This document shows positions 5,501-49,666 of a stretch of 64,000 nucleotides of DNA, one piece after another (position 1 is the first letter of the stretch; each line of letters opens with the position of its first letter). The stretch spans positions 1,736,001 through 1,800,000 of the forward strand of contig CM102283.1 of assembly GCA_046563655.1 (NCBI GenBank), written 5' to 3'. A program made the position numbers and the translations under genes. The notes under the pieces are model-generated. The model did no database searches, had not been told where the DNA came from, and saw only the letters and a program-made list of their open reading frames with translations. Source of the DNA: Yuukianura sp. NJ FZ-2021 (taxonomy: Eukaryota).

Positions 5501-6832
5501 AAAGCTGGAAAGTCAGAAGGTGTGATGGCGTTTGAAAAAAAAAACACAATATTTTGGAATTTCTTAAATTCTGCATAAGTTTTGAAAATACACTTTTTCA
5601 AAAAAAGTAAAGAGCTAGTAAGTTAGAAGGTGATGGCATTTGAAAAAAAAAACAATATTTTGGAATTTTTCAACTTTCTATAAAAAAGGAAAATGCACTT
5701 TAGTGAATTTGTTAGCCTAATCCTGACTTTCTTCAAAAGTCCTACTGTAGAAACTTAGAAGGTGTGATGCGGTTTTCAAAAAACAATATTAAAAAAACAC
5801 CGAACTTTTGTTCTAGTAAATACCTTAAAGCCACGATGGACATGGACATGGACATAGACTTTGACGAAACCAATCTCTATCTTAACACTTTTGTTTGGTT
5901 AAGCGTCAAAACTAATCTTTAATCTATGACTTTTGTTCAGTTTCGTAGTGGGTGAAGTAGGAATTTTGCTTTAAAAACTCTTTTTTTCAGTCTTTCAGAA
6001 ATTTTGCTAGTTTTGCTAAATTGAAAACTACCATTGAATCTTACGCGTTTCTTACGTTTCTTACGTAGTTTTCCGAAAACTACGTAGTTTTGCCAACCCT
6101 GATTTAGAGCTTTTCTGGCCATCTTATGTAAAGAGCATGCGCAGTTTTTAGAAAGTGTTAACTTTCTAATTTTCGCATTTTTTATGATTTTGTCCAGAAG
6201 TTTCTCCATTGTGAATTTGGAAATTTTTTTGTTCAATTTCTAATATTCTTATGACCTATTCAAAATGTTCCAATTGTGAAAGTTGTCGAAAAATACGAGA
6301 AAGCTGGGTCATAACCTAAATAGAATGAGGCTGAAGTAACAATTAAAAAAAACATAGTTCGGGAGTAAGCGGGCGATCATTGGCCCGATCCGAAATATGC
6401 CGATCCCAGGGTATTTTTAGCTTAACATGCGTTACATGATTTTGCATTAGATGTACATTAGTTTGGGTTAGATTATTTCCAATTTCCTTAATTTACGTTC
6501 GGTTACAGCATACAACGTGTTCTAGCTTAAGAAGTTTAGCTGAAATTTGATATAAAATAATTATTAATTAAATTGCATGGAACTATTGCGCCTTTTGTTT
6601 TACATAACAGGCCGATCTTGGCACGCGCCACGTTGGAATCGGCGATTCCCATTGGCACAAGTTAGATCGGCTGGATCGGTTTTTTCGTACATGAACTATG
6701 ACTTGGAATAGACAATAACCACGAAATTCAATAAAACCATTTTCGGTATTTACTATAATGTAGTACAATAGCTGTCTGTTGCTGTCAGTACATTTTTGCA
6801 CTTCTTCTTGAGCACAACTCCAAGTGGCTACG

Positions 6833-8761
6833 ATGTGTTTCTTAACATTGTTGCCAATTCTGATCTTTACTAAAAGTACATTTGGAATTGATCGGTCCCA
6901 TTTCTTTGAGGGTGGGACAGACACGGTTTTGAGCAAAGATGAGGCGTATGTCGGCACTCACCTTCCAAACTTCAAGTTTTTCGGAAACACGTTCAACCGC
7001 ATCTTTGTCGGCGATAATGGCATTCTTTCATTCCTTGAAGGTAATTCTTATGCTACTTGTAAACACAGATTCTTACATTATATCTACATAAATCTATTTT
7101 CATTATACATAATTATATTTACAGTAGACATTGTACATGAATGTTGCTGACACTCCTTTCTTTTTTACAGGAATCGATTACTTCATTTCTAGTTGCTACG
7201 ATATCCAGGGAAGTGTTGATGGGTCAATGCTTATCGCCCCATTTTGGTCCGAAGTTAACCCAGAAATGGGTGGGCTAATTTCTTACTCCGTCAATTCTGA
7301 TGTCAAGAGTCTGGAAAAAGTCAACAAACAACTCCAAGCAGGGTTTCCGAGATCTAAGCCCCACAACATGCATTGGGTATTTGTTGCAACATGGCTGGAT
7401 GTGCATCCCAGGGGACACAATTCAAGTAACACACAGTGCAGAAACACATTTCAGACAATCCTAACCAGCGACGGAACGCGCTCTTATGTCATCTTCTACT
7501 ACGGTTAGAATTATTTCACAAAAAATTAAATAATTTTTTTAAAGGTAAATAAATTTAAACAAATATTAAATATTTTTAATATTAATATTAATATTAATAA
7601 TTTTTAATAATTAATAATATTTAATATTAATATTAATATTTTTAAATAAATACTAATAGATAAATGTAAAGATAACTTGAATTTCGTGTTTTAGAAACTC
7701 TCAACTGGATTTCCGGGAAGAACTTCGATGGAAACTGCAGCGAGGAGGCTCATGGCTCAGCAACTGCTGGATTCTACGCTGGACACAAAATTCACCAAGG
7801 CGAAATTCAACTAATTAGTCCTGCCTCATGTACCCGCGAAGTTAGAGAATTGGCAACATCCAGCAACGTGGGTCAAAACGGGGTTTGGGTATTTAAGGTA
7901 GACAAAACTCTAGAGGTACCGAAACTCAAGGATATTCGAAAACCTCGACAAATCGAATACGCTGATCCGCAATTTCCCGCTGATGGTACATGCCCTAAGC
8001 CTAAGAATGATCTATGTGGGTCAACTACTCCCTGTCGCAAAAATATTGTCGACCTGGTAGAGTATTTTGTCAATTTCCTAAAAGACTTCCCAACGAAATG
8101 TTTGGGTAAAAAGCCCGGTACTGGAAACCCACGTCCTGAACCCACCGACCCACCTCCAGAACGCACCTCTTCCCCCAGATACCCGGACGATCCTGATCCA
8201 ATCACTCAACCGCCAAACGTCCCCACGAAATGTGATCAAGTCAATGATATCGGGATTCTGTTAGACTCTTCTGGTAGTATCGGTGACGAATCGTATAAGT
8301 TGGCACTGACATTTGTTGACAAATTGGCATCAGCTTTTGTTGAAAAGAGCAGAATCATGATGATTTACTACGGAACTGCTGTGAGATTTCAACTGGAACT
8401 TGATAACGCATGGACACCAGCTGAGATTTCTGAAGTCATCACAACAACTCCTTACCTGAGCGAGGACACGTACACTGGAAAAGCAATTGAAGTGGCAACA
8501 GAGCACATGAAGAAGAGGAAACGAGATGGAGTTTCGCAAAACCTGATCATTTTAACTGACGGGGATCCGACTGTTCCACTTGCCTATGCACCAATTGATG
8601 CAAAAGACGCGGGAATTTCAATATTTGCAGTGGGAATAGGGAAACAGATCAAAATGCAAAACCTCATGAGTATGACATTGCAAGCAGACAGAGTAACTAC
8701 GGTCCAAAGTTATGAAGAATTGGATCAAAAGTTAAGAGATGTCAGCCAAATGATGTGTTAA
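6833..8761 (+). CDS. Secreted NIDO + Cys/Pro-rich linker + vWA protein, paralog A2 (about 535 aa)
   Basis: Exons 6833-7040, 7171-7503, 7695-8761 join in frame (1608 nt). Signal peptide, NIDO motifs, vWA with MIDAS DSSGS, T and LTDG, and IFAVGIG. Confidence 0.88.
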
Positions 8762-9388
8762 TGTGTGAACCAAGGTTCCTAGAGCAACGAAATAGTTTTC
8801 CTTTAACAGGTTTGGCAATAAAGGCTGTTTACGAAAAAATCCCGCTCCGAACAAGTTTTTCCGCCAAACCCATTTGATTACATATAAATAGAGATTTTTA
8901 TATAAAAATTTTACTAACAAAAAAACTTCTAGATATTGCCTAACCTATTGAAGAATAAACTATTTTGTTGTTTACGAACCTTGGTGTGAACTGTTTTGTC
9001 GAAATCTGCTGATTTTCTCATATTTTTAGAAACCAATTGAAAAAATTCGAATAAATAAAATTATGAAAACATTTGGATTCTTTTATTAACTTTTTAAAGT
9101 CAAAAATTTGAGTAATTAACAATAGAATATATCGTAATAAATTTATAAACTTATTTAACGGCATACATTTGAAATTCCGTGGGTTAAAATTGGAAGATTT
9201 TTGAAATTTCAACTTCAAAAATAAATGTAAAGTTTGCGACGTATTTATTAGAAGAAAAGTAATTACGATTGATACAGACGAAAAAAAGAAACAGAGGAAA
9301 TTTTGATTTTTTTTAGTTTGATACAATTCTGTTTTGGATTTCCGAAACAGAAATTTTGGGTTTCACGGTTCGGTTTTGAGTTAGTACC

Positions 9389-10675
<1,287 letters not shown>

Positions 10676-10676
<1 letters not shown>

Positions 10677-10853
10677 AAACATCTTCGGGCCATTTCCGAA
10701 AGTGGGCGTGACTCGAATGAAATTGAAGACAAGACGAATAATTCACTTCTGCTAGATGATCCCACTACAACTGATGACCTCGACCGTCACAAAGTCACTC
10801 TGCTTCCTTCATCTCGTTCTCCTTCCGTGTCTTCGCGCATGACCGATGTCTAA
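10676..10853 (+). pseudogene. Orphan C-terminal tail of a second para-type sodium channel paralog
   Basis: KHLRAISESGRDSNEIEDKT...HKVTLLPSSRSPSVSSRMTDV* is homologous but not identical to the end of the Nav at 49508-49666 (KHLRAISECGGDSNEIEDKT...SSITSHMTDA*). Confidence 0.8.
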
Positions 10854-11597
10854 ATTTTCAAAATCTCTAAAAATTCAAATAATGAAAGTGTTTTAAACAG
10901 TGCTAAAAAAGCAGGACCAATTTTGACAATGAAGACCAGAAGGTATACTGTCCATATTGTCCAAAAAAAAAAGCGCTTCAAAATTGTTGTTCAAAAAAAA
11001 TTCAGCTTCGAATTCGACTTTCAAATTGGAACAATTTTGCTAAAAAGTTTTAGTGTTTAACACTGTGATCAACGAATTAAGCCATTTGTGACCTTGCCAT
11101 TTCAACTTTCAATTTACAAAACTTTACAAAATTTTTGCGCCTCTCAATGTGAAATAAATGTGATATTGTCCGTGTGTTGCAGCTTCAAATTACGAAAAAG
11201 ACATTACAGCTCGATTTCATTGTTGTTTCTGCGCAGTGCAAATGTTTTAGGCTGCGCAGAAGACAAAATCAATATAATGAAAGGATTTTGCACTTTACAA
11301 GAAATCTTTTGTGCTCCAAAGACGCAATGCGCAAAACGAGCAAACTTTTTTCATCTTTCTTTTTTCTGCCAAAGAAAAGTGAAATTCCAGGAAAATCGAT
11401 CCTGCTGCCCCATTTTCCACTTTCACTTGACTTTCTCCTGAAGTGCTAAACATTCACACACGGCTTTTAGCACTCCGTTTTTGCTAAAAATAGGAATTCT
11501 AGGGGTCAAGTAAGGTTAAGGTTAGGTTATCTAACTTAAAACATGGAAATTTTTGAGGTTGACCTTTGACCTTTCCTAAGTTTGAGTAAAGCTCATC

Positions 11598-13830
11598 ATG
11601 TCGTCTGCTTCTGGAAGTATTGTGCATGACACGAGACCGCCATTTCGACCATTCACGAGAGATTCGCTAGTGCAAATTCAAAGCAGAATTGCGGAAGAAA
11701 ATGCAAAAAAGAGGGAACTGGAAAAGAAGCGGGCCGAAGGAGAAGTAAGTTTTTGTTTACTTAATTGTTTGCACTAATTAATAATATAATAAGTTAACTT
11801 CATTTGAAACTTTTTCTGCAATTTGAAACTTTTTCCTGTATGATTTCAAATGTTAAATTTAAAAGATATCAACGAATTTTCAAAAAGTTAACGTTTGCAG
11901 AATCAATTTCTGAAAAGCTGAAGTGCTGCTGCACTTTTGTGCTGCCGCAGTTTCCAAATATTAAAAGTAGTAATAATATATATATTAACTTATAAAATTA
12001 TATTATAAATTATAAATAAATTGAAATAATTATAACATAATTTTAAAAAATTTCCTTATCCCACTTCCTTTCAAAAAAAAGCTTTCAGTGTTTTCACGCT
12101 GTCGTCAGCTCACGTTTTTGCCCTGCCTCCATTTTTCAAAAAAAAAAAGTTAAGTCCACCGTCCTTTCCTTGCTTTCCAATTCATGTCACAACATTGTTG
12201 GTAAAAAATATTCAAAAAATTTGTTTTTGATATATACAAATACATAAACAAAAAATTTTCATTTTTTGGAAAACATTTTACAAAATTTTTCAAAATACTA
12301 AAAATTATTTGGAAAAAATTGGAAGAGTGAGGGTGTGTTTGTTGTATTGTTTCTCAGGAGGGAGACATTTATCGTAAAATCAAGAAAAGCAAAAAGGAAG
12401 TAAGAAAAACATTTAGACACCACACTGGTCAATGGGAATGAAATTTACACTATCATTTCAAATCATTTTTACTTAATTAGTTCAGTTCCTTAGTTTCTAG
12501 TTGGATGTCAGAGGTCGAACTTACAATTCATAGTCAATTAGTCCAATCAGTCAATTAGTTCAGAAATACAGTCAAGGAATAGTCTATAGTTTTCTAGTAC
12601 TAAATAGTGGAGGATTGTTGACATCCTCCAACAAAATTCAGCACGCTTAAAACGCCTGAAAACTTGCTTTCCGAATGAAAACAGCTTTCGTTTAGCATAG
12701 AAATCGTCTTGGCCTTTCAGTTTAACCATTTCAAATTCAACGTGACCTTTGACCTTCTGCAATTTTTTAAGGCTCGGTATGAAGAAGAGGATGAAGACGA
12801 AGGGCCACGTCCGAATGCTAACTTGGAACAGGGAATGCCACTGCCGATTCGACTGGCAGCAGCATTTGTGCCAGAACTGGCTTGTACGCCACTCGAGGAC
12901 ATTGACCCCTTCTATGCAAATCAGGCCGTAAGGTCACTTCCAGCCATTTTACTTTTGAGTTGACCTTCCATTCGGTTCATGGATTTCATTGGCTGCCATT
13001 CAAAGTAGACCCTGTAGTCGTAGGTATCGTTTCATTCCTTACATAGTATTGCATGGAAAAAGCTCAAATTTTTACCTCGTTTTCAGTTGCCAACTTCGGA
13101 GTTTTTGATTTTGAATATATGAAATTTTCGAAATTTTGAAACTGGTTAGACGTTCGTGATCGTGAGTAAGAAGAAGGACATTTTCCGGTTCAGTGCGACG
13201 GATGCTGTGTGGCTCCTGAGTCCCTTCAACCCCATTCGCCGTGTTGCCATCGCCATCTTGACGCATGGTCTCTTCACTCTCGTCATCATCACGACCATCC
13301 TCACGAACTGCATGGTCATGATCATGCAGTCACCAGTCACAGAGTCAACGGAGTAAGTGGCAACATTGCATGGCAACAGCATAACTTCCGTAGTCAACAT
13401 GTGTTAGACCTTTGTGTTGATCAAGTGGTTGTTGATCTAATTGTGTTGAACTAATTGTTGTTTGGTTGCAGAGTGATCTTCACTGCCATCTACACCGTAG
13501 AGAGTTGTGTGAAAGTGATGGCACGCTGATTCATCTTAGAAAAGTTCACATACCTTAGAGACCCTTGGATAGAAGAAGTTGAAGGAGGCGAAGAAGAGGA
13601 AGAAGAGGTCAAACCAGTGCATCATCATGGTCCACCGAAGGAAGAGGAAGAAGAGTACCCGCATGATTGTTGTCCACCAAGATTCTACGAAAGATTTCCG
13701 ATTTTCATGGTGGACGAAACGCCTTTCGGAGTGGGTTGGGCCAACTTGAGACTCAAAACGTTTCAGCTCATTGAAAACAAATACTTTGAAACGGCCCATC
13801 ATCATGATTCTACTGTCGTCTATGGCTTTG
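11598..13830 (+). pseudogene. para: Truncated, internally deleted duplicate of the para-type Nav gene
   Basis: Exons 1-5 are near-identical to 38806-41030, then the sequence jumps at TTGGA (13565-13569) to the homolog of 45792-46059. In-frame TGA at 13527-13529 (GGA in B) and a 2-nt deletion near 13795. Confidence 0.88.
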
Positions 13831-15170: not shown

Positions 15171-16601
15171 ATGGGTTTTGGCGGGGCAGTTTTGTTGGTT
15201 GGAGTTTGTGTCTTTCGTCAAACACTGGATTCAGCTGCATTCGAAGCTCCACCATGCATAAAGGCAAACGAAACAGTTGTGGTCAGTTTCTCAATAATGA
15301 AAAGTTTTTTGAACATTTGTTGAAAAGTTATTTTTTTAAATTTTGCTTTTAAAAAAGGCAGGGTTAAGCATTTTGCAATCTGAAATCTATGCGATTTTGT
15401 GATGTAGAGCGGGCGGGAGTTCAAATATACATTGCAATTCTCCTTTTCCTAAAACTCGTCTCGGTTTTTGAATCTGAATCTAGAGTTCGGAGTTTTGCAA
15501 AAGAGAAGTGAGAAACTCTCGCGCGGCAAACCTCTAGATTCAAATTTACTCCTACATTTAAGAAAATTTTGCTTACCCTCACTGCTCTACATTACAATTT
15601 CTGGTTTTCAATGTACCTAGATTTCAGATTGAAAAACATGCTTACCCTGCCTAATTGATGTTTTTTTTTTAAATTTTGCTCAATCAGTGTTAACATTTTG
15701 AACAGGAGGTGAGTTATACTATTCCTGCTGAAATGCTCAAGTGGGCCGAAGAAGGGGTCGACGCTCACAACAAATTTCGCAAGAAACATGGTTCCAAATA
15801 TTCTCAAAAATAAGAAAATAATAAAAAACGATTGTGTTTGAAAATGTTTGTGTTAAATTTTAGGCGTTCCTCCCTTGGTGCTCAACCCTAAAGTGAGTTT
15901 CCTTCGAAATAAGTCTGAACAAAGCGTCACATTCTAAATTATTCCGAAGTTAGTAATTATTTTGATTAGGAAGCAATTACTTTCAGATGTGCAAGAGTAC
16001 TCAGTGGACAGCCAATCTGAGTGCGGTAACCGATACAGTCATGTATGCTGCAATAATCTATGGAGATGGGACGACATGCAGTGAGACTTCGGGCAAGTCC
16101 GTTGGACGTATTCTAAAACCAGCGAGTCAGTTTGTACAAGATTGGTACGACGACATCAAATACTACGACTTTGATAAACACAAAGCGAAGCCTGGCAAAG
16201 TAGCTCTTCGCTTCCAACAAATCGTCTGGAAAGGTCCAGTTATTAAAAAATTGACACAAAAAGTTCAAAAAAGTTGGTTAAAAAGTTGAAATTATTTTTC
16301 CTGTCCGTTTGTTTAGCGACCAAGGAAATGTGTATGACCCACGCACAAGCAGTAGGTGGGCAACACTACATTGCAGCTCACTACTATCCACCAGGTCGGT
16401 GATCAAACGTTTTTTTGAAGATTTTGAATCTCTTTAAAATTGGAATTTCCTTTTTGAACAGGAGCTTGGGGTTGGGATGGTGGCGATGCAGTTAACGTAT
16501 TGAATTCAGCTAACCACGATCACTTCAAAACTGGAATCATTTTGATTTTGATTCTTTGTGTAACACCTTTTCTAAAAACCGTTTTTTCAACATTTGTCTA
16601 A
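15171..16601 (+). CDS. CAP/SCP (GAPR-1/allergen V5-like) protein, paralog 1, with signal peptide and hydrophobic C-terminus
   Basis: Exons about 15171-15281, 15706-15790, 15864-15892, 15987-16233, 16317-16393, 16462-16601. DAHNKFRKKHGVPPLVL, WYDDIKYYDF, RFQQIVWK, AHYYPPG. Confidence 0.8.
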
Positions 16602-17097: not shown

Positions 17098-17278
17098 ACT
17101 AGACGGAACCCGTGATGTTTACACATCACGAAATTTACTTGAAGCACTAGGTCATCGTTGGGTCAAACGAAAGAGCTAGGAGATTTTTGACAAAATATTA
17201 AAAATCCTCTTATTGCTCCATGTCAAAAATCGTTCAAGTAAATTTCGTGATGTGTAAACATCACGGGTTCCGTCTAGT
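17098..17278. mobile_element. MITE with 46-bp terminal inverted repeats
   Basis: actagacggaacccgtgatgtttacacatcacgaaatttacttgaa (17098-17143) is the reverse complement of 17233-17278. Confidence 0.8.
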
Positions 17279-18230
17279 CTCTTTAAATGGAATTGTGGTG
17301 AGCCAAAGTGAAAAAGTTAAAATGCTGGGGCTCATTGTAAATTCAAATTTAAAATGGGATGAACAAGTGAATAGCGTTGTTCAAAAATGTTATGCAGTTA
17401 TGAACTGCATCTATAAATATAAAGATTACTTGCCAATAAAGTCAAGAAGAATTGTGTTAGAATCTTTGGTGCTCTCTGTAATTCAATATATGATTGTAGT
17501 ATGGGGAGAAACCACAAAGAAAAATATTAAGAAAGTAGAAAAAGTTGTGAGAACAATGGCTAGAATGGCACTTAATAAAAGAAAATTCGACCAAGTTTCT
17601 GCAGATATGACTCAGGAATTAGGGTGGCTATATCCTGAGGCATTATTTAAATACAAAGTACTGATATTTATGTATAAGTTAATAAGTGAAAGTAGTGTAG
17701 CGGTTTTTAGTGATTATTATAGAAAAGCTAAAGAAGTTCATCGATATCCTACCTCAAACGCATGTAATAATTCTAGAATTAGTTTAGGAAATTTAAATAC
17801 AAAAGGAAAATATGGTAGTCAAACCTTTCAAGCAAGATCAATACAGTTATGGAATGAGTTAGATCAAGAAATATGTAATGCTAGGAGTGTAGTACAGTTT
17901 AAGCGTCTCTTAAAAGGTGAGCTAATTAGGAATCAACTTGAGAAACTTAGTTAATTAATTAGTTTTTATGGCCCAACTAAATTATTTACTGGATTGCTAA
18001 TTTTAATTACATTAATTATAGTAGTACGTATTTCCAATTAGTTAGTATATTATTAGGTACCTAGGTATAAAAAAAAATCATCAACAACCAACAAATTTAG
18101 ATTCTAAATTGCGTAAAGCCACATGTGTGGGGGCATTTAGAATACTGTACAAGAAAGCAAATATTATTATTGAAAATAAATAAACTTGAATTCAAAAAAA
18201 AAAAAAAAAAAAAATTAAAAAAAAAAAAAA
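17279..18230 (+). mobile_element. 5'-truncated non-LTR retrotransposon (CR1/L2-like ORF2 C-terminus) with 3' UTR and poly(A)
   Basis: VKMLGLIVNSNLKWDEQVNSV..LVLSVIQYMIVVWG..LGWL..TFQARSIQLWNEL..FKRLLK resembles the LINE RT thumb/C-terminus; aataaa and a long A tract at about 18194-18230. Confidence 0.8.
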
Positions 18231-19171: not shown

Positions 19172-20536
19172 ATGGGTATTGGCGTGGCAGTTTTGTTAGT
19201 TGGAGTCTGGGTTTTTGGTCAACCGCTGGGTTTTGCTTCAGCAGAATTCGACGCTCTTGACTGCATAATTGTAAACGGATCAATTCTGGTGGGTTTTTTT
19301 AAAAAATGTCAAAGTTGTTTGAACATTTTTTGAAAAGTTTTGTTTGAAAAATCTGTTTTAACATTCTTGTTTTTGAACAGGATGTGAAGGATATTTCTCC
19401 TGATATGCTCAATTGGGCTAAGGAAGGGGTCGACGCTCACAACAAATATCGCAAGAAACATGGTGCCAAATATTCTCAAGAATTAAAAAATAATAATAAA
19501 AACGATTGTCAAATTTGAAAACATTTGTGGTGAATTTCAGGCGTTCCTCCTTTGGTGTTGAACCCCGATGTGAGTCACCGTTGAAATCGAAATCAGTCTT
19601 TAGAAAGCGTCCTCACATTCCAAATTTTTCTGAAGTCATTGGATTACTATGACTAAATTCGATTACTTTGATTAAGAATCGATTACTTTCAGATGTGCAA
19701 GAGTACTCAGTGGACAGCCGAGTGGAACGGAAAAGCCGGAGGAATGACGCATACTGGACCAATCATCACAAAGTTAGCAACCGAAGCAGGTAAATTGGCT
19801 AAAACAAAAAAAAAGTGAAAAGGTCGAAATGTAAAAACGCCAAAAAGGAAATGGCAAAAAAAGTAAAATAACGAAAAAGCGAAATGACGGAAAAGTGAAA
19901 AGGCCAAATTTCACTGTTTGGCCCTTTCCTTTTTGGCGTTTTTACATTTTTTTTGGCCTTTTCACCACTGACCATTTCACTTTTGGCCAAATTACATGGA
20001 ATCTTTAGGAACCGCTAAGATGAAGTGTGGTGAAAATTTGCACTGGAGCTCTGGAACCAAAGTGGAACCAGCGAGTTACTATGTAAATGGTTTTTACGAA
20101 GAAATCAAAAACTACGACTTTGCTAAACACAAAGGAAAGACTGAAGAAGCGATGGTTGGTCACTTCACACAAGTCGTCTGGAAAGGTCAAGTTATTAACA
20201 ATTTTGAAAAGAAAGTTCGGACAGGTTTAAGTTATTTGGAAAATTTCCTATCCACTTGTTTAGCTTCCAAGGAAATGTGCATGAGCTATGCAAAAATAAC
20301 ATCAACAAGTGACCCCAAGCACCCACCACCAGGATTTTTTGTTGTAGCTCACTACTTTCCATGGGGTCCGTGATCAAACGTTATCTTTGAATTGCTTTAA
20401 AGTTTTAATTTCGTTTTGAACAGGGAACTATGCTGATCAACACGCAGAAAACGTCTTGAACGTGAATTCAGCTAACCACGACCACTTCAAAACTGAAATC
20501 ATTTTGATTTTGATTTTTTGTGTACATCTTTTCTAA
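19172..20536 (+). CDS. CAP/SCP (GAPR-1-like) protein, paralog 2, with signal peptide and possible GPI-anchor tail
   Basis: Exons about 19172-19288, 19381-19462, 19541-19569, 19693-19789, 20009-20185, 20264-20364, 20424-20536. HNKYRKKHGVPPL, CGENL, YEEIKNYDF, GHFTQVVWK, VVAHYFPWGN; hydrophobic IILILIFCVHLF end. Confidence 0.85.
19787..19998. mobile_element. Fold-back MITE-like element forming most of intron 4 of CAP paralog 2
   Basis: caggtaaattggctaaaa matches the reverse complement of ttttggccaaattacatg; internal arms atgtaaaaacgccaaaaaggaaa / tttcctttttggcgtttttacat. Confidence 0.7.
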
Positions 20537-21057: not shown

Positions 21058-23886
21058 TCAGAAAGACATTTGTGGTGAATCGGGACAAAGCTCTATGCTC
21101 AACTTACGCAACTCTTCCTCCAAATTCTTATAATTCTTCACTTGAATTACCCGGTCTTGTCTTCCTAAAGTCATTTCTAAAAGGTTTTCCTCTTTAATAA
21201 GATCGCCAATTCCCACGGCAAAGACTTCGATTCCCTGGTCACGTGCCTCTTGTGGTTCATTTTCCAACGGATCCGAGGGATCGCCATCCGTTAAAATGAC
21301 CATGATTTGTGGAACCCCCTCTCGTCTCTTGCTGGCCATTTCATAGATGGCAGCACTCATTGCCTTACCTGTTTGTGTGTCGTGGTGCAGATGACGCGTT
21401 GCTCTGATGACTGCAGAAACCTCAGCGGGTGTTAAGTAGGTATCGAGTTCTATGCCAATCATGACGTCACCGCTGTAGTAGATGTACATTATTCTGCTGT
21501 TGTCAACAAAGGCTGACGCCAACTTGTCAACAAAGTCCAGTGCCAGAAGAAAGTCTTTATCTCTGATGCTCTCAGAAGCGTCCAACAGAATTCCGAGGTC
21601 ACTAACGTTGTAGCATTTCTTTGGGGGTGGTGGAGTTGTGGTGGGCTCTTCGGTGGTCGTTGTTTTGGGCGGAGGAGTGGAAGGGTTTTCGGTGGGGATC
21701 CCTGGGGTCGTACTTGAGGAAGGATATCTTGTGGGCGGAGTGGTATGTCCGGGGGGCCAAGTGGTCTTGTCTGTGGGCGGAGTTGTATGTCCGGGGGGCC
21801 AAGTGGTCTTGTCTGTGGGCGGAGTGGTATGTCCGGGGGGCCAAGTGGTCTTGTCTGTGGGCGGAGTTGTATGTCCGGGGGGCCAAGTGGTCTTGTCTGT
21901 AGGCGGAGTTGTATGTCCGGGGGGCCAAGTGGTCTTTTCTGTGGGCGGAGTGGTATGTCCGGGGGGCCAAGTGGTCTTGTCTGTGGGCGGAGTTGTATGT
22001 CCGGGGGGCCAAGTGGTCTTGTCTGTGGGCGGAGTGGTATGTCCGGGGGGCCAAGTGGTCTTGTCGGTGGGCGGAGTTGTATGACCGGAGGGCCAAGTGG
22101 TCTTGTCTGTGGGCGGAGTTGTACGACCGGGGGGCCAAGTCGTCTTGTCCGTGGGCGGAGTTGTATATCCCGGAGGCCAAGTGGTCTTGTCTGTGGGCGG
22201 AGTTGTATGACCGGGGGGCCAAGTCGTCTTGTCCGTGGGCGGAGTTGTATATCCCGGAGGCCAAGTGGTCTTGTCTGTGGGCGGAGTTGTATGACCGGGG
22301 GGCCAAGTCGTCTTGTCCGTGGGCGGAGTTGTATATCCCGGAGGCCAAGTGGTCTTGTCTGTGGGCGGAGTTGTATGACCGGGGGGCCAAGTCGTCTTGT
22401 CCGTGGGCGGAGTTGTATATCCCGGAGGCCAAGTGGTCTTGTCTGTGGGCGGAGTTGTATGACCGGGGGGCCAAGTCGTCTTGTCTGTGGGCGGAGTTGT
22501 ATATCCGGGGGGCCAAGTAGTCTTGTCTGTGGGCGGAGTTGTATGACCGGGGGGCCAAGTGGTCTTATCTGTGGGCGGAGTTGTATATCCGGGGGGCCAA
22601 GTGGTCTTGTCTGTGGGCGGAGTTGTATATCCGGGGGGCCCTGTGGTCCGGTCTGTTTCGGGGGGCGGAGTTGTAGTGAAATTATCGGTCGGAGGAGGCA
22701 CACATACTTTTGGCAGCTCTATCAGGAAATCCACAAGATGCTCTACGAATTCGACAATACTTCTGCGACAGGACGTGCAATCGTCTTCCGTAGGCGTAGG
22801 GCATGTGTCATCGAGTGGATCTTGTTGCCTGGGTTCCGGATAAGTTGCGATGTTTCGATGTTTTCGGATATCCTGGAGTTTCGGTACCTCTAGAGTTTTG
22901 TCTACCTTAAATACCCACACTCCGTTCTGACCCACGTTGCTGGATCCTGCCAATTCTCTAGCCCGATTGGTACATGAGGCGGGACTAACAAGTTGAATTT
23001 CCCCTTTGTGAATTTTGTCTCCAGCGTAGAATCCAGCAGTTGCTGAACCAAAAGCTGGCTGGCTGCAGTTGCCTTCGAAGTCTATTCCAGAAATCCAGTC
23101 GAGCGTTTCTAGAACACAAAGATTCAAAGTTGTCTTTTTGTTTGTCTATTAGTGCTTATTTAATTTTTTTTTGAAATAATTCTAACCATAGTAAATGATG
23201 GCATATGAGCCAGTGTCGTCTCTAGTTAGGATCGTCTGGAACGTGTTCCTGCAGTACGTGTCAAAGGCATTGTGTCCCCTTGCAGGTACATCCAGCCACG
23301 TTGCCACAAATACCCAACGCACGTTGTGGGGCTTAGACCTCGGAAACGCTACTTGGAGTTGTCTGTTGGCTTTTTCCAGATTCTTGACATCGGCATTGAC
23401 GGAGTGTGAAATTAGCCCACCCATTTGTGGGTTAACTTCAGACCAAAATGGAGCGATAAACATTGACCCATCAACACGTCCTTGAAGATCGGAGCAACCA
23501 AAAATGAAGTAATCGATTCCTGTACAAAAAAACAAGTGTTATCAACTTTTCTGTATAAAGTAAATAGCTGTATGTATAATGTATAACATACAATGTGTGT
23601 AAACAAATTTATGTTTAATGTAATAGCTTCATGTATAATTTAAGAACAACTTAAGTTCAGACTTAGCATATGAATTACCTTCGAGGAATGAAAGAATGCC
23701 ATTGTCGCCGACAAAGATGCGGTTGAACGTGTTTCCGAAAAACTTGAAGTTTGGTAGGCGCGTGCCGACATATGCCTCATCTTTGCTCAAAACTTTGTCC
23801 GTCCCAATCTCAAAGAAATGGGACCGATCAATTCCAAGCGTACTTTTAGTAAAGATCAACATTGGCAACAATGTAAAGAAATTCAT
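21058..23886 (-). CDS. Secreted NIDO + mucin-like 14-aa repeat + vWA protein, paralog B1
   Basis: Exons 23886-23679, 23519-23187, 23108-21058. Signal peptide, NIDO motifs, 21 x TTPPTDKTTWPPG[H/Y], vWA with DASES..T..LTDG and VFAVGIG. Confidence 0.9.
21730..22680 (-). repeat. Coding 42-bp tandem repeat (about 21-22 units) with 84-bp higher-order alternation
   Basis: Unit gtgggcggagt(t/g)gtat(g/a)..ccgg(g/a)gggccaagt(g/c)gtcttgtc; Y/H alternation in the protein. Confidence 0.95.
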
Positions 23887-24829
23887 TGTAGCCACTTGGA
23901 GTTGTTCTCAAGAAGAAGTGCAGCAATGTACTAACAGCAACAGAGCTACTGTACTACAATTTCGAAAATTCCGAAAGTAGGTTTTATTTGATTTCCTGGT
24001 CATTGTTGATTCCGGGTCATTGTTGATTCCGGGTCATAGTTGCTGTACCAAGAGAAACCGATCCAGCCGATCCAACTGGTTGTGATCAGAATGGCCGATT
24101 CGAGCATAGACTGTGAGCAGAAAGGCCAAACCTTATTACAAGCAAAATAAAAAAAGCAATAGTTAATGCAAATTCAATTAATAATTATTTTAAATCAAAT
24201 TCCAGCTGAAAATCGCAAGCTAAAACGCGTTGATGTAACCGAAAATAAACTAACGCAAATTTAAAATAATCTAATCCAAACTGATGTAAAACGATGAAAC
24301 CCATGTGACGACTAAAAAAAAAACCTGTTTTCGGCATATTTCGGATCGGTCCCACGGATCGGCCGCATCCTTGCGAACTATGTTTTTTTAATTGTTGCTT
24401 CAGCCTCATTCTATTTAGGCTATGACCCAGCTTCCTGGTATTATACGACAATTTCTCCATTGTAAACACTTTGAATAGGCCATAAAAATATTAGAAACTC
24501 AAAAAACTTCCAAATTCACAATGGGGAAATTTCTGGAAAAAATCATAAAAAATTATTAGAAAGTTAGCATTTATTAGACGATGACACGTCATGCACAGCT
24601 AGAAAATGTATGGTTTCCGAAAAATTTTGTCATGCGGTTGAAATATGAAATAGCGGTATAATCGATCATGGATGTTCGTTTCTCACTTCCAAAAAAAATC
24701 AAACTTTCTCTCCGCAAACTCCTTTGCCTTCACTCAGAGCAGACGCTAACCTTGTTAAAAAACTTTCAATTACAATTATTGCAAATTTGTTTCTCAAACA
24801 TTTCTTGGCGCCTCGTGAGTAACACGAAA

Positions 24830-25900
24830 ATGTTGCCACGAATGTTAGGATTATGTTTTGGTGGATTTCCGTTTCATTGGGGCGTTCATGTGAAATTCAA
24901 AAATAGAATCACTTGAAGTTGAGATTAGTACATGATTTTTTCACTTTTTCAAGAATTTCAAGAAACACGAATGTTTCAATTTTCAAGAATTTCAAACAAC
25001 TCTAAAATTTTTTGTTCCCAGAGCTACTGCCGCCTGGGCCTTCCACCAAAATGTTGCCACGAATAGTGGGATCACGTTTTGGTGGGATTCATTGGGGCGT
25101 TCATGTGAAATTCAAAACTAGAACCAGTTGAAGTTGAGATTACATGAATTTTTAACTTTTTCAAGAATTTCAAGAAACACGAATTTTTCACTTTTTCAAG
25201 AATTTCAAGAAACACGAATTTTTCACTTTTTCAAGAATTTCAAGAAACACGAATTTTTCACTTTTTCAAGAATTTCAAACAACTCTGAAATTTTTTTTTC
25301 CCAGAGCTACTGCCGCCTGGGCCTTCCACCAAAATGTTGCCACGAATGGTGGGATCACGTTTTGGTGGGATTCATTGGGGCGTTCATGTGAAATTCAAAA
25401 CTAGAACCAGTTGAAGTTGAGATTACATGAATTTTTCACTTTTTCAAGAATTTCAAGAAACACGAATTTTTCACTTTTTCAAGAATTTCAAGAAACACGA
25501 ATGTTTCAGTTTTTCTAGAATTTCAAACAACTCTGAAAATTTTTTTTCCAGAGCTACTGCCTCCTGTGCCTTCCACCAAAATGTTGCCACGAATGGTGGG
25601 ATGACGTTTTGGTGGGTTTCATTGGGGCGTTCATGTGAAATTCAAAACTAGAACCAGTTGAACTTGAGATTGTATGAACTTTTCATTTTTCCAGAATTTC
25701 AAGAAACACGAATTTTTCACTTTTTCAAGAATTTCAAACAACTCTGAAATTTTTTTCCAAAGCTACTGCCACCTGGGCCTTCCACCAAAATGTTGCCACG
25801 AATGGTGGGATCACGTTTGGGTGGGTTTCATTGGGGCGTTCATGAGAAATTCAAAAATAGAACCACTTGAAGTTGAGAAAAACGAATTTTCTCACATTTG
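24830..25900. repeat. Block-B copy of the about 210-280 bp satellite with 33-bp subrepeats
   Basis: Same unit as 2660-3700 with a different subrepeat count. Confidence 0.9.
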
Positions 25901-26557
25901 AAATCCAACTTTGGAAATACTTTTTTTTTTCGAAACCATCCATTTTATTACTCTGATTTTTGGTTTATCGTTTTTAATAGTAAAGGGTTAACTTTCTAAA
26001 ATTCAAATATTTTATGATTTGGTTCAAAAATTTCTCCATTGTGTATTTTTAAAATTTTTTGTTGAGTTTCTAATATCCTTATGGCCTATTCAAATTGTTT
26101 ACGACTATTCTCGAAAGTTACCATAGTTCGATCCGAATACCCCGATCCGAAGTATGCCGATCCTAGGGTATTTTTAGAGTAACAAGGGTTTAATTGTTTT
26201 ACATTAGTATATTATAGTTAGATTATTTAAAACTTGCTTAGCTTATGTTCGGTTAGATACGTGTTTTACCTTAGGAATTTTAGCAGGAATTTGATTAAAA
26301 ATAATTATTAATTGAATTTGCACAGGAACTACCAGGTCACTTGTTTGGCATAAAATTTGGTCATATTTGTAAGCGGCCACAGTTCGAATGTCTGCCATTT
26401 TGATTTGCTCGAGTTGGATCGGTTTTTACATGCAGCGACTCTGACTTGGAATAGACAACAACCCTGAAATCCAATAAATCTTCTGGCGGGATTTACTACA
26501 ACTTTCTTTTGTTATTAGTACATTGCTACATCTCTTCTTGCGTACCAAGTGGCTACA

Positions 26558-27378
26558 ATGTATTTCTTAACATTGTTGCCTCTTAACAATGTTCTTAACA
26601 ATGTTAAGAAATACATTGTTGCCAATTCTGATCTTCACTAAAAGTACATTAGGAATTGACCGGTCACATTTCTTTGAGGGTGGGCCGGACACAATTTTGA
26701 GCAAAGATGAAGCGTATGTCGACACGCACCTGCCAAACTTCAAATTCTTCGGAAAAACGTTCAACCGCATCTTTGTCGGCGATAATGGCATTCTTTCATT
26801 CCTCGAAGGTAATTCTTATCCTAATTATGAACCTAGGTTGTTCTTACATTATTTCTATTTAAACCGATTGCATTATACATTAATAGATTTATGGATAATA
26901 ATATACGTATTTTAATATAATATGATATTGTATTTACATTATAAATGATACATAAATGTGTTTGCATACATTGTAATGCTATTATACATTATACATAACT
27001 TCTATTTACATTATACATAAATGTTGAAACACTTCTTTTTTACAGGAATCGATTACTCAGTTCTAGTTGCTTCGATATCCAGGGAAGTGTTGATGGGTCA
27101 ATGTTCATCACTCCATTTTGGTCTGAAGTTAACCCACAAATGGGTGGGATAATTTGACACTCCGTCAATTCTGATGTCAAGAGTCTGGAAAAAGTCAACA
27201 AACAACTCCAAGCATCGTTTCCGAGCTCTACTCCCCACAATATGCATTGGATATTTGTGGCAGCATGGCTGGGTGTGCATCCCAGAGGACACAATTCAAG
27301 TAACAAACAGTGCAGAAACACATTTCAGACAATCCTAACCAGCGACGGAACGCACTCTTATGTCATCTTCTACTACGG
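26558..27378 (+). pseudogene. NIDO-vWA family pseudogene (exons 1-2 only)
   Basis: Scrambled start region, a 1-nt deletion near 27056 and a TGA near 27154 relative to paralogs; exon 3 is replaced by unrelated sequence after about 27450. Confidence 0.8.
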
Positions 27379-28223
27379 TTAGAATTATTTCACAAAAAAA
27401 AATAAATAAATGCTAAAGACAAATATAAAGACAACTTGAATTTTTTGATTTTTGAATGGAATTATAACATTATAAACACCCGATATCTATTTTTTTGTAT
27501 CAACAACGGAAGTTACAGGGAATTAACAGGTATTCCCAAAAAATTCCAAACTTCCCTCCCTCCCGGTTGAGAAAATTTCAGATTCCCTCCCGTTCCTTCC
27601 CTACTAGTTTTCACCCCCTCCCTCTCATTTCCCTGCAGGGAACAGGCAGAGAACAGCGAATCCCTGTTAAACCGGGTCCCGGTTCCACCTCTGATACAGC
27701 AACCAATTGAAACAATCGAAATAAATAAAATTCTGGAAAAGTTTGGGTTATATTTTACAAACGTATTTTCCAACACACTTCATGAAATACTTTTGAAATT
27801 CCTAATTTAAAGTTAGAAGATTTCAAAAGTTTCAGCTACCTAAGAAATAAAGTGAATAAAATGGAAACAGCGAAACTACGATTGGTAAAGACACAAAAAC
27901 AGCTACAAATTTTGATTTTTGAAAGCATTGTGTTTGTACAATTCGGTTTTTTAGTTTTTTTTTTTTTTCAGAACTTATCATCAAATTTTCAAAAAATCAT
28001 CCATCTGGTTTGCTTTTCATCGTGTTTAGAAAGTGCTAATTTTTTAATGTTCGGATTTTATATTAGTTTGGTCCGGCAATTTCTCCATTGTTTTGGAATT
28101 TTTGTTGGATCGCCTGAAATCCAATAAACTGATTGCTTGCAGTAGTTTTATTCGTAAAATAGCTGTTTGTTACTGTTGGTCCATTACTACACTTCTTGTT
28201 GCCCAAAACTCCAAGTGGCTACA

Positions 28224-29171
28224 ATGTATTTCATCACGTTGTTGCCAATTCTAGTCCTCACGAAAAGTACATTTGGAATTGACACCTATCCAGATTTACC
28301 GAAACTCGCGGATATTCGAAAACTTAGACAGATCGAAGTCCCATATACCGATCCAGAATTTCCCGCCGATGGGCAATGTCCTTTGCCTAAAGATGACCAC
28401 TGCGGGTCAACAACACTCTGTCGCAAAAATATTGTCGACCTGGTAGAACATCTTGTCAATTTCATAAGAGACTTCCCCACGAAATGTTTGAAAAAACCCC
28501 CTGGAGATTCATCCCCACCCACCGAACCCCCAGCGGACCCTGAAAACCCTGAACCAACAAAACCCCCAACATGGACTCAAGAACCCCCTATTTCTGCGCT
28601 CCCCTCAACCACTCATGCGCCAGACGTCGCAGTGCCATGTCCTGAAGTCAGTGATTTCGGAATTATGCTGGATTCATCTGGGAGTATCGGCAAGAAAAAT
28701 TATAATTTAGCACTGGAATTTGTTGACAAACTGGTGGCAGCATTTGTTGGAAGGAGCAGAATAATGATGATTTACTATTCCAGTCGAGTCGTAATATACA
28801 TTCCACTTGCCAATACTTACACTCCAGCTGAGATTTCTGGACTCATCAAACGAACTCCCTACATCAGCCGAGGAACTTACACGAGAATTGCATTACTCAG
28901 TGCAATTGAGGAAATGAAGGCTAACAAACGAGCGGGGATTACACAGCGTTTGGTCATTTTAACAGACGGAGTGCCCTCTGCTCCACTCACATTCGAACCA
29001 AAACGAGCACAAGACGCAGGAATTCAAGTATTTGCGGTGGGAATCGGCAAAGACATTAACGAGCGCAATCTTGTACAAATGACGTTGCGAAAAGACCGCG
29101 TAATGTCGGTCCAACGTTATGATCAGCTAAAGCAAAAATTAAACGAGATCAGCAAAATGATGTGTCTTTGA
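28224..29171 (+). CDS. Single-exon secreted vWA protein lacking the NIDO domain (315 aa)
   Basis: MYFITLLPILVLTKSTFGID is fused directly to ..PKLADIRKLRQIE..CPLPKDDHCGSTTLCRKNIVDLV.., a Pro-rich linker and a vWA with DSSGS/T/LTDG; open frame to TGA with aataaa downstream. Confidence 0.85.
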   Translation: MYFITLLPILVLTKSTFGIDTYPDLPKLADIRKLRQIEVPYTDPEFPADGQCPLPKDDHCGSTTLCRKNIVDLVEHLVNFIRDFPTKCLKKPPGDSSPPTEPPADPENPEPTKPPTWTQEPPISALPSTTHAPDVAVPCPEVSDFGIMLDSSGSIGKKNYNLALEFVDKLVAAFVGRSRIMMIYYSSRVVIYIPLANTYTPAEISGLIKRTPYISRGTYTRIALLSAIEEMKANKRAGITQRLVILTDGVPSAPLTFEPKRAQDAGIQVFAVGIGKDINERNLVQMTLRKDRVMSVQRYDQLKQKLNEISKMMCL

Positions 29172-30428
29172 ATTGCTCTATTTCTTATTTTGTTTGTGAA
29201 ATCTTAATTCCTCGTAAGTAGAGGCCAGTTGAATCGGAAGGAATAAATAAAATTATAAAAACATTTGAGTTATTTTATAAACTTATTTTACAACTAATAC
29301 TTTAAAAATTACTTTCAAATTGCGTTGGAAATTGCCCCGTTGGAAATTGCAACTCACTTTATTGAGTTTATAGAATATGAATATGGAATACAGAATATGA
29401 TTTGAGAAAAATACACTTTTTTCCAAAAAGTAAAAAGCTGGAAAGTCAGAAGGTGTGATGGCGTTTGAAAAAAAAAACAATATTCAGGAACGCTTCCTCC
29501 CGGAAGAGAACTATACGAAATCTTCTATCTTTAGTATTTAAGTTTCATCCAAGTGTTTTTGAAATAATAAAAAAAGAAAGTAAGTAAAAAAAAAAATATT
29601 CTGGAATTTTTCAACTTTCTATAAAAAAGGAAAATGCACTTTAGTGAATTTGTTAGCCTAATCCTGACTTTCTTCAAAAGTCCTACTGTAGAAAGTTAGA
29701 AGGTGTGATGCGGTTTTCAAAAAACAATATTTTGGAATTTTTAAAATTCCCATAAATTAGGAAAATACATTGAAGTGAGGTTCTCAGCCAAATCGTCACT
29801 TTTCCAGAAGTCCTACTGTAGTAATAAGTTAGACGAGAAAGAAAAAGACGAGAAACAGAATTCAGAATTTTTAGGTATTTCTGAGATTTAGCTAGATTCC
29901 ATCAAGACGAATAGATATTTCCAAGGTTCCTTGACAACCTAACCTTTCGTTGTCAAGGAACCTTGGATATTTCTGACTAGGGGGTGGGGGGATAGTACTC
30001 GTAGTCCCCCAAATTTTCATCAATTGTTTTTTGATTTTAACACGACTCATGAATCTGATATTCATAAAACTCATATTTGTAATTTTGTTCGTGTAAATTG
30101 TGTAGTAAGTGTGGCGCTGCCTTTCTTCCAAAATATAGAATATAAATATAGAATCTATATTTATATTCTATATCTTAATCTATATTTCGATTTGCAATTT
30201 ACTCTCTATTGCCAATTAAATTTCGAAGAGTTTCAGTTTAAGCTTAAAAAATAAGTTACATGAAATTTAAACTTCATGGCGTTTGTTTTTATGAATCATC
30301 GAAGCATTTTTTTTTACAAGTTGTCTGTCATCTCAAATAAGCAACAACATTTTCCAAAAGCAATTAATTTTGGTGCCAGGATTTACGCGGGGAGTTGTGG
30401 ATATACACAAATTCCCGGGTATTTAGAG

Positions 30429-30881
30429 CAGGGTTGGCAGCTATGTTTCTTACACCGTTTCGTACACGTAAGAAACGACGTAAGAAACGTCACTGAAAAC
30501 TACAAGCGTAAGATTCGTAAGATTCGATTTGCAAATTTTTGGAAAATTTAATGTTAAAATTAAGGAAATCTGTTTTCACCGAACTTTTGTTCTAGTAAAT
30601 ACCTTAAAGCCACGATGGACATGGACATGGACATAGACTTTGACGAAACCAATCTCTATCTTAACACTTTTGTTTGGTTAAGCGTCAAAACTAATCTTTA
30701 ATCTATGACTTTTGTTCAGTTTCGTAGTGGGTGAAGTAGGAATTTTGCTTTAAAAACTCTTTTTTTTCAGTCTTTCAGAAATTTTGCTAGTTTTGCTAAA
30801 TTGAAAACTACGATTGAATCTTACGCGTTTCTTACGTTTCTTACGTAGTTTTCCGAAAACTACGTAGTTTTGCCAACCCTG
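30429..30881. mobile_element. hAT-type MITE, 11-bp TIR, 8-bp TSD
   Basis: TIR cagggttggca / tgccaaccctg; atttagag is duplicated at 30421-30428 and 30882-30889. Only the right part survives in block A (about 5798-6101). Confidence 0.85.
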
Positions 30882-31602
30882 ATTTAGAGCTTTTCTGGCA
30901 ATCTTATGTAAAGAGCATGCGCAGTTTTTAGAAAGTGTTAACTTTCTAATTTTCGCATTTTTTATGATTTTGTCCAGAAGTTTCTCCATTGTGAATTTGG
31001 AAATTTTTTTGTTCAATTTCTAATATTCTTATGACCTATTCAAAATGTTTCAATTGTGAAAGTTGTCGAAAAATACGAGAAAGCTGGGTCATAACCTAAA
31101 TAGAATGAGGCTGAAGTAACAATTAAAAAAACATAGTTCAGGAGTATGCGGGCGATCATTGGCCCGATCCGAAATATGCCGATCCCAGGGTATTTTTAGC
31201 TTAACATGCGTTACATGATTTTGCATTAGATGTACATTAGTTTGGGTTAGATTATTTCCAATTTCCTTAATTTACGTTCGGTTACAGCATACAACGTGTT
31301 CTAGCTTAAGAAGTTTAGGTGAAATTTGATATAAAATAATTATTAATTAAATTGCATGGAACTTTTGTTTTACATAACAGGCCGATCTTGGCACGCGCCA
31401 CGTTGGAATCGGCGATTCCCATTGGCACAAGTTAGATCGGCTGGATCGGTTTTTTCGTACATGAACTATGACTTGGAATAGACAATAACCACGAAATGCA
31501 ATAAAACTATTTTCGGTATTTACTATAATGTAGTACAATAGCTGTCTGTTGCTGTCAGTACATTTTTGCACTTCTTCTTGAGCACAACTCCAAGTGGCTA
31601 CG

Positions 31603-33574
31603 ATGTGTTTCTTAACATTGTTGCCAATTCTGATCTTTACTAAAAGTACATTTGGAATTGATCGGTCCCATTTCTTTGAGGGTGGGACAGACACGGTTTT
31701 GAGCAAAGATGAGGCGTATGTCGGCACTCACCTTCCAAACTTCAAGCTTTTCGGAAACACGTTCAACCGCATATTTGTCGGCGATAATGGCATTCTTTCA
31801 TTCCTTGAAGGTAATTCTTATGCTACTTGTAAACCCAGATTCTTACATTATATCTATATAAATCTATTTTCATTATACATAATTAATAATTATAATTATT
31901 AATTATACATAATTATATTTACAGTAGACATTGTACATGAATGTTGCTGACACTCCTTTCTTTTTTACAGGAATCGATTACTTCATTTCGAGTTGCTACG
32001 ATATCCAGGGAAGTGTTGATGGGTCAATGCTTATCGCTCCATTTTGGTCCGAAGTTAACCCAGAAATGGGTGGGCTAATTTCTTACTCCGTCAATTCTGA
32101 TGTCAAGAGTCTGGAAAAAGTCAACAAACAACTCCAAGCAGGGTTTCCGAGATCTAAGCCCCACAACATGCATTGGGTATTTGTTGCAACATGGCTGGAT
32201 GTGCATCCCAGGGGACACAATTCAAGTAACACACAGTGCAGAAACACATTTCAGACAATCCTAACCAGCGACGGAACGCGCTCTTATGTCATCTTCTACT
32301 ACGGTTAGAATTATTTCACAAAAAATTAAATAATTTTTTTTAAAGGTAAATAAATTTAAACAAATATTAAATATTTTTAATATTAATATTAATATTAATA
32401 ATTTTTAATAATTAATAATATTTAATATTAATATTAATATTTTTAAATAAATACTAATAGATAAATGTAAAGATAACTTGAATTTCGTGTTTTAGAAACT
32501 CTCAACTGGATTTCCGGGAAGAACTTCGATGGAAACTGCAGCGAGGAGGCTCATGGCTCAGCAACTGCTGGATTCTACGCTGGACACAAAATTCATCGAG
32601 GCGAAATTCAACGAATTAGTCCTGCGTCATGTACCCGCGAAGTTAGAGAATTGGCAACATCCAGCAACGTGGGTCAAAACGGGGTTTGGGTATTTAAGGT
32701 AGATAAAACTCTAGAGGTACCGAAACTCAAGGATATTCGAAAACCTCGACAAATCGAATACGCTGATCCGCAATTTCCCGCTGATGGTACATGCCCTAAG
32801 CCTAAAAATGATCTATGTGGGTCAACTACTCCCTGTCGCAAAAATATTGTCGACCTGGTAGAGTATTTTGTCAATTTCCTAAAAGACTTTCCAACGAAAT
32901 GTTTGGGTAAAAATCCCGGTACCGGAAACCCACGTCCTGAACCCACCGACCCACCTGGGTACCCACCTCCAGATCGCACCTCTTCCCCCAGGTACCCGGA
33001 CGATCCTGATCCAATCACTGAACCGCCAAACATTCCCACGAAATGTGATCAAGTCAATGATATCGGCATTCTGTTAGACTCTTCTGGTAGTATCGGTGAC
33101 GAATCGTATAAGTTGGCACTGGCATTTGTTGACAAATTGGCATCAGCTTTTGTTGAAAAGAGCAGAATCATGATGATTTACTACGGAACTGCTGTGAGAT
33201 TTCAATTGGAACTGGATAACAAGTGGACACCAGCTGAGATTTCTGAAGTCATCCAAACAACTCCTTACCTGAGCGAAGACACGTACACTGGAAAAGCAAT
33301 TGAAGTTGCAACAGAGCACATGAAGAAGAGGAAACGAGATGGAGTTTCACAAAACCTTGTGATTTTAACTGACGGGGATCCGACTGTTCCACTTGCCTAT
33401 GCGCCAATTGATGCAAAAGACGCGGGAATTTCAATATTTGCAGTGGGAATAGGTAAACAGATCAAAATGCAAAACCTCATGAGTATGACATTGCAAGCAG
33501 ACAGAGTAACTACGGTCCAAAGTTATGAAGAATTGGATCAAAAGTTAAGAGATGTCAGCCAAATGATGTGTTAA
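31603..33574 (+). CDS. Secreted NIDO + linker + vWA protein, paralog B2 (near-identical to A2)
   Basis: Exons 31603-31810, 31971-32303, 32496-33574; same motifs as 6833-8761 plus a 4-aa PGYP insertion. Confidence 0.88.
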
Positions 33575-35536: not shown

Positions 35537-35584
35537 AAACATCTTCGGGTCATTTCCGAAAGTGGGCGTGACTCGAATGAAATT

Positions 35585-38805: not shown

Positions 38806-49666
<10,861 letters not shown>

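Follow-up and report, generated by a model that had tools for sequence, protein, structure and literature searches.

An intron present in only one of two tandem CAP-domain genes of Yuukianura sp. consists largely of a fold-back repeat and is missing from the spliced message

The DNA analyzed here, called the window throughout, is the whole stretch of 64,000 nucleotides from Yuukianura sp. NJ FZ-2021, and all positions refer to its first letter. Two genes encoding CAP-domain proteins, P1 and P2, were found head to tail in this window:

15171-16601, plus strand: CAP-domain gene P1, with exons 15171-15281, 15706-15790, 15864-15892, 15987-16233, 16317-16394 and 16462-16601
19172-20536, plus strand: CAP-domain gene P2, with exons 19172-19288, 19381-19462, 19541-19569, 19693-19789, 20009-20185, 20264-20365 and 20424-20536

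The six exons of P1 encode 229 amino acids in an intact frame, and the seven exons of P2 encode 238, beginning with a signal-like stretch and closing with a hydrophobic tail. The two proteins agree at 114 of 219 aligned residues (52%), and five introns are common to both genes in position and phase. The introns of P2 measure, in order, 92, 78, 123, 219, 78 and 58 nt. At the site of the fourth one, P1 has one uninterrupted exon of 247 nt (15987-16233), which runs from the MCKSTQW start to VWK. The first intron also differs in size, with 424 nt in P1 (15282-15705) versus 92 nt in P2; in P1 it holds a MITE-like element at about 15371-15636, with 19-nt terminal inverted repeats (15371-15389 and 15618-15636) that match at 95%. 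This element differs from the one found in P2, and is a case of a repeat sitting within an old, shared intron.

Sequence comparison placed the host gene in the CAP/SCP superfamily (PF00188). P2 aligned with the CAP repeats of the frog protein P0001 at 36-39% identity over 155-184 amino acids, and a HMMER scan returned 138 CAP homologues at E <= 0.001. When P2 exon 5 was searched by word index against 5.8 billion proteins, the sole match was again P0001, a 911-aa frog multi-CAP protein, at 50% identity. Single exons stayed below the PF00188 threshold (14.6 and 16.8 bits versus a cut-off of 21.1, at E 1) and had no Pfam match at E 0.01, and of the 145 pattern matches that a metagenome scan returned for P2 exon 5, tblastn confirmed none. 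Public contigs around 19685-19720 and 20095-20200 fell into at least seven joint classes, and many of these contigs matched at 80-90% likeness, so that the genome must contain a sizeable family of CAP paralogs beyond P1 and P2.

The extra intron of P2 and the parts that could be recognized within it are as follows:

19790-20008, plus strand: extra intron of P2, 219 nt, GT..AG in phase 1; the other five introns of P2 are shorter
19790-19995, no strand assigned: fold-back repeat element of 206 nt, with a left half of purine-rich units of about 16 nt and a pyrimidine-rich right half
19790-19805, plus strand: left terminal inverted repeat, whose first six bases are the donor GTAAAT; 13 of 16 bases match the reverse complement of 19980-19995
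19827-19949, no strand assigned: core inverted repeat, with arms 19827-19859 and 19917-19949 of 33 nt, 94% complementary, and 57 nt between them
19968-19972, plus strand: candidate branch site CTGAC, read from the sequence, with its A at 19971, 37 nt before the acceptor G
19980-19995, plus strand: right terminal inverted repeat, inside the stretch 19954-19993 that is common to other genomic copies
19996-20008, plus strand: segment of 13 nt between the palindrome and exon 5, the last five of which are the acceptor TTTAG

This interval separates exons 19693-19789 and 20009-20185, and its borders are CAG/GTAAAT at the donor and TTTAG/G at the acceptor, the slash marking the splice point. Its removal preserves the frame and yields the intact 238-aa product, while unspliced P2 reads into a TGA nine codons inside the interval (open reading frame 19672-19818). 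When the left half of the element was aligned with the reverse complement of the right half, the donor GT fell on bases 1 and 2 of the left terminal repeat. The acceptor stands 13 nt beyond the right one, so the right end of the element and the splice site do not coincide exactly. The candidate branch site fits CTRAY, the branch-site consensus. No target-site duplication was found next to the arms (19790/19995) when the flanks were compared at 2, 3, 8 and 13 nt, and transposition proper is therefore no more than a candidate route. A weak direct repeat, AACCG followed by AAG, is present at 19779 and 20010, either side of the intron; we put at roughly 6% the probability that chance alone places a 5-nt repeat no farther than about 12 nt from each border.

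Most of this structure had been anticipated in a preliminary description of the DNA. The gene models upheld its continuous MCKSTQW-to-VWK exon in P1, its 219-nt interruption of the P2 exon, the restoration of the frame by splicing and the TGA met on read-through. Its donor within the left terminal repeat proved correct and could be placed at the very first base of that repeat, and its failure to find a clear target-site duplication was repeated here. The acceptor had been put about 10 nt past the right repeat; it does lie outside the repeat, but at a distance of 13 nt. The same text had called the interval almost wholly fold-back, and the folding analysis agreed.

As DNA, 19790-20008 folded at -49 kcal/mol, versus -25.3 ± 3.4 for 200 shuffled sequences (z -6.88), and none of the 200 shuffles folded as well. 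The RNA fold of the interval with its exon flanks gave a z of -5.34. The left half of the element is 76% purine and has a period of 16 nt, its units starting with GTGAAA or GTAAAA, and the right half is 69% pyrimidine; about 50 nt of additional units in the left arm have no mirror partner. Both the DNA and the RNA fold predict a paired donor within the stem, a position that alone would hinder rather than help its recognition. By raw folding energy the interval ranked 68 among 1595 windows of 220 nt across the 64 kb, which also hold about ten other, independent inverted-repeat elements, indicating that hairpins as such are common in this DNA. The distinctive point is that the P2 intron is itself the hairpin, not that a hairpin is present. 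A scan of Rfam 15 gave eight hits, all below the gathering threshold, the best being MIR2118 with 39.4 bits against 85. We took these to be sub-threshold hairpin look-alikes, and rejected a reading of the hairpin as a known miRNA or snoRNA. In exon 5, 10 nt of the codons for the conserved CAP motif G-E-N (20027-20036) are perfectly complementary to 19959-19968, a unit of the right arm; the exon already resembled the unit, and this may have offered microhomology for an insertion.

The fate of the interval in the message was read from four public runs, X1 to X4, which share a single sample and study and each carry the label 'DNA?'; their contigs were placed on 19500-20300 at 80% likeness. Three of them, X1, X2 and X3, behaved like genomic DNA, and the interval was contiguous in contigs of X1 and X3: record 2 of X1 spanned 19690-20284 without a break (3 differences), and record 19 of X3 was contiguous over 19688-20003. 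The fourth run had zero depth in the bins wholly within intron 3 (19581-19661) and intron 5 (20202-20255). Intron 3 was skipped by three X4 contigs, overhangs of X4 contigs ran into the next exons, and introns were skipped in contigs of several CAP paralogs. This pattern of depth and joints suggests that X4 is cDNA. Its record 26 (314 nt, depth 19.2) had letters 21-115 on 19693-19787 with 0 differences and letters 116-292 on 20007-20183 with 1 difference, 20 and 22 letters at its ends being left without placement. The join of exons 4 and 5 in this contig omits exactly 219 nt, and since AG stands on both sides, the 19787/20007 join is the same as the predicted junction 19789/20009, the one at which the preliminary description had asked for spliced reads. 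A spliced form of P2 therefore exists in the message, and evidence at contig level goes as far as its existence, minor isoforms, intron retention and the spliced share not being readable from contigs. With the spliced frame intact and the spliced form present in X4, P2 as a disrupted pseudogene was rejected.

Contigs of the same runs also showed that parts of the element occur elsewhere in this organism. Two parts, 19810-19861 and 19954-19993, matched many other contigs: matches beginning at 19810 were found in 6, 12 and 12 contigs of X1, X2 and X3, those beginning at 19954 in 7, 12 and 9, and those ending at 19993 in 3, 13 and 13. The overhangs of these contigs carried on with the same unit of about 16 nt, with agreement up to 0.98. 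A hairpin core matched by many contigs built of this unit indicates that the element belongs to a dispersed repeat family, and three joints of the type 'opposite strands' among the contigs show that other family copies are also fold-backs. Summed over the element bins, depth exceeded that in the exon bins on either side by a factor of 10 to 1000, a figure that is not a copy number, and the matching contigs are short, so that sizes, ends and gene context of the other copies are not readable from them. The outermost parts of the intron, 19790-19809 (20 nt) and 19994-20008 (15 nt), had no match to other contigs at 80% likeness. Family copies were also carried by records 27 and 28 of X4, suggesting from two cDNA-like contigs that some copies are transcribed and kept, not spliced out. 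Within the window, BLAST found no second copy of the element, and the unit motif had 5 matches versus 1.35 expected, all of them within 19815-19965; a second metagenome scan, made with this motif, gave 0 matches.

The comparison of P2 with its relatives showed that the intron is not the only additional sequence at this site. Short in-frame segments on both sides of the junction are found in P2 only:

19759-19789, plus strand: about 10 P2-only codons before the intron, a gap in P1 and in CAP homologues
20009-20019, plus strand: about 4 P2-only codons after the intron, with a boundary uncertain by a few residues

This coding insertion amounts to about 14 codons (about 42 nt) and falls in the loop that links two conserved CAP motifs. 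Over the bins 19743-19796, X1 and X3 each had the depth of a single contig and X2 had none, which indicates that the additional coding bases are single-copy in the genome. Against the frog CAP repeats, P2 showed a gap of about 14 residues right around the junction, whereas P1 aligned gap-free. We then compared lengths at the site in 139 homologues (the 138 plus the frog protein), using only alignments that span it; these are non-independent, and many come from multi-domain proteins. For P2, at least 8 net additional residues were counted in 153 of 205 spanning alignments from 101 proteins, with a mode of 13-14 (75/205) and 8 alignments at 0 or fewer. For P1, with 198 spanning alignments from 98 proteins, only 8 had at least 8 net additional residues and 98 were within -1 to +1. 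The contrast is nevertheless clear: P1 has the usual length of the CAP family at this site, and P2 has gained about 42 coding bases together with the 219 spliced ones. Moreover, at least two further paralogs are without the intron, as short DNA contigs span the site with no room for 219 nt (196 nt for the joint from 19719 to 20026, and 286-401 nt for that from 19729 to 20101). Because P1 and these paralogs are without the intron, and because it lies within codons found only in P2, the intron is the derived state in P2, as judged from the paralogs and the CAP homologues.

On this basis we favor, with a probability of about 0.55, the explanation that a real, P2-only intron arose when a fold-back repeat of about 206 nt came to lie inside a single exon. 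One insertion of about 260 nt, with the fold-back repeat at its core, would have entered the loop-coding part of the exon. About 42 nt arriving with or around the repeat would have remained in frame as the approximately 14 additional codons, and the remainder would be removed as an ordinary GT-AG intron. Most of the splice signals would come from the element. The donor is formed by the first bases of the left repeat, the units themselves beginning with GTGAAA or GTAAAA; the pyrimidine-rich right arm may provide a polypyrimidine tract and the branch-like CTGAC, and the acceptor TTTAG lies 13 nt past that arm. Folding of the palindrome would place donor and acceptor close together at the base of a single stem, and an element of this shape would offer the same splice signals in either orientation. 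That the intron is a gain, and that it is built of an element with inverted ends, had both been put forward earlier; the first now rests on the paralogs and on the P2-only codons around the intron, and the second on the repeat-family contigs and the 13/16 match of the termini. The gain had further been called recent, a term that the sequences do not support, as the arms are imperfect and the P1 and P2 proteins are only 52% identical.

Transposons that behave as introns are known from other organisms. In maize, Ds and dSpm elements inserted in exons are spliced through sites in their termini, with a few codons extra or missing, as described in the literature of the late 1980s and the 1990s. The P2 intron resembles them in that a putative transposon interrupts an exon, uses splice sites at or close to its termini and leaves additional in-frame residues; the maize cases, though, are known recent insertions of characterized transposons with target-site duplications, whereas here the family is uncharacterized and its arms have diverged with age. 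As to architecture, the element can be likened to the Foldback (FB) elements of Drosophila, which have long inverted arms of short tandem repeats. Both have arms of short tandem units and belong to a dispersed family, but the P2 copy, with 206 nt, is far smaller.

Introners have been described in Micromonas, Aureococcus, dinoflagellates and fungi, and a survey reports them from 175 of 3,325 genomes; among 835 genomes of animals and land plants they appear in only two animal groups, of which copepods are named, and they are 6.5 times more frequent in aquatic organisms (Gozashti et al. 2022, PMC9860276). According to the same source, a target-site duplication accompanies 49 of 130 introner families and so is not universal (PMC9860276). 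With introners as described there, the P2 intron has in common a short, non-autonomous repeat with inverted ends at the start of the intron, its splicing, its absence from paralogs and a multi-copy family. It is unlike them in that one intron copy is known, no target-site duplication is present, the acceptor lies 13 nt outside and the arms are made of 16-nt units, and also in its host, probably a terrestrial hexapod, as opposed to the aquatic bias of the survey. Judged by titles and abstracts, no report of introners in Collembola was found among the papers listed in the literature searches. Among animals, a MITE-like origin has been proposed for introns of the tunicate Fritillaria borealis, which have non-canonical ends according to a review (PMC11282704); those introns are likewise thought to derive from MITEs, but the one in P2 is GT-AG. 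SOS splicing removes DNA transposons from transcripts in C. elegans and human cells, depends on AKAP17A, CAAP1 and RTCB, and starts when inverted terminal repeats pair (Zhao et al. 2025, PMC12779559). Excision there takes place in or near the repeats, at sites that are imprecise and rarely at GU-AG, and the short indels that result are in some cases in frame (PMC12779559). The likeness to P2 lies in paired inverted repeats that leave the mRNA from within an exon while indels remain, and the difference in the one canonical GT-AG pair found here. By analogy, then, the P2 intron may work like an introner or like a maize Ds-type transposon acting as an intron.

The same observations can be ordered differently. 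The intron might predate the repeat, as a short intron of the P2 lineage into which a copy landed, or in which an array grew and was mirror-copied in place, with hardly any of the original intron surviving. The two ends of the intron that are unshared with other copies are what this account would lead one to expect, the unmirrored units of the left arm indicate that such arrays do change in place, and inverted-repeat elements are frequent in this DNA, with about ten in 64 kb, one of them inside the old intron 1 of P1. Even so, the unshared ends sum to 35 nt, whereas the shortest of the 11 introns in the two genes has 58 nt, 13 of 16 bases of the left end are mirrored in the right end that the family shares, so that the donor itself looks element-derived, and P2-only codons bracket the intron, for which one insertion event is a better fit than two; we consider this order of events possible but unlikely. 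An intron ancestral to the CAP cluster and lost from P1 and the other paralogs appears very improbable to us: the length of P1 does differ exactly at the site, as an imprecise loss could give, but outgroup CAP domains match P1 and not P2 in length there, and with two or more further paralogs also without the intron, several independent losses would have to stand in for one gain.

Capture of filler DNA during double-strand-break repair is a route proposed for new introns in Daphnia, and an abundant or nearby fold-back repeat could have served as the template in P2 with no transposition involved. The missing target-site duplication, the approximately 42 nt of unique, non-repeat DNA that entered beside the repeat, the direct repeat AACCG/AAG and the possible microhomology between exon 5 and the right arm would all suit this route; the direct repeat is nevertheless expected by chance at the roughly 6% estimated above, and nothing separates capture from transposition followed by decay. 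We regard repair capture as quite improbable. Turning from origin to removal, the trigger of SOS splicing is present in the form of long paired inverted repeats within a former exon, and the P2-only codons would fit an imprecise start, but the junction has the textbook form CAG/GTAAAT to TTTAG/G and comes with a pyrimidine tract and a branch-like site, so that excision of the interval by this hairpin-triggered pathway instead of the spliceosome can be given very little credence.

The preferred reading, a fold-back repeat that came to lie in an exon and is probably removed by the spliceosome, can be carried further, to a fold-back family that acts as an introner in a hexapod. Its 16-nt-unit palindrome, donor-like unit starts and stem that may draw the splice sites together would then be the working parts, with a donor at the 5' end and a pyrimidine tract at the 3' end whichever way the element lies, and the 14 codons could be the scar of an imprecise, possibly SOS-type, first phase that preceded takeover by the spliceosome. 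We hold this extension to be doubtful. Were it true, springtails, which live on land, would join the two animal groups already reported to have introners. To our knowledge, well-documented intron gains in animals are few, and P2 brings together at one locus a repeat with inverted ends in a former exon, a donor in its first bases, cDNA-like evidence of its removal, sister genes without it and a codon scar. The P2 intron would thereby offer a natural substrate for asking if hairpin-triggered excision hands over to the spliceosome during the birth of an intron.

Other features were recorded in the rest of the window. Between P1 and P2, the segments 17098-17143 and 17233-17278 form a perfect inverted repeat of 46 nt. 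It extends into the beginning of an open frame of 250 aa at 17202-17954 that had no Pfam hit and resembles the tail of a retroelement protein. The largest fold-back of the window is located at 36044-36456, with arms of 132 nt (82% complementary) and of 73 nt (92%) and a CTT/AAG-rich core, and its sequence is unrelated to the intron element. Nested segmental duplications pair 453-4260 with 22664-26465 (93%), 5798-10725 with 30577-35585 (96%) and 10721-13365 with 37918-40586 (92%). These duplicated regions (1-13365, 21058-35585 and 37918-40586) carry a family of genes with NIDO and VWA domains and long threonine/proline-rich repeats, exemplified by a frame of 695 amino acids on the minus strand at 21058-23145. 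Finally, 42750-49700 contains exons of a para-type voltage-gated sodium channel, which mark the window as animal DNA and place its source probably among springtails or other early-branching hexapods. Its exon at 48283-48684 was 85-90% identical to proteins of insects, springtails and crustaceans, and the linker encoded at 45403-46122 was closest to Collembola, with 46-48% identity to Orchesella and 39-42% to Folsomia; seven of the best eight matches to this linker (E 4e-40 to 3e-27) were named Collembola, and the best insects were at about 1e-25.
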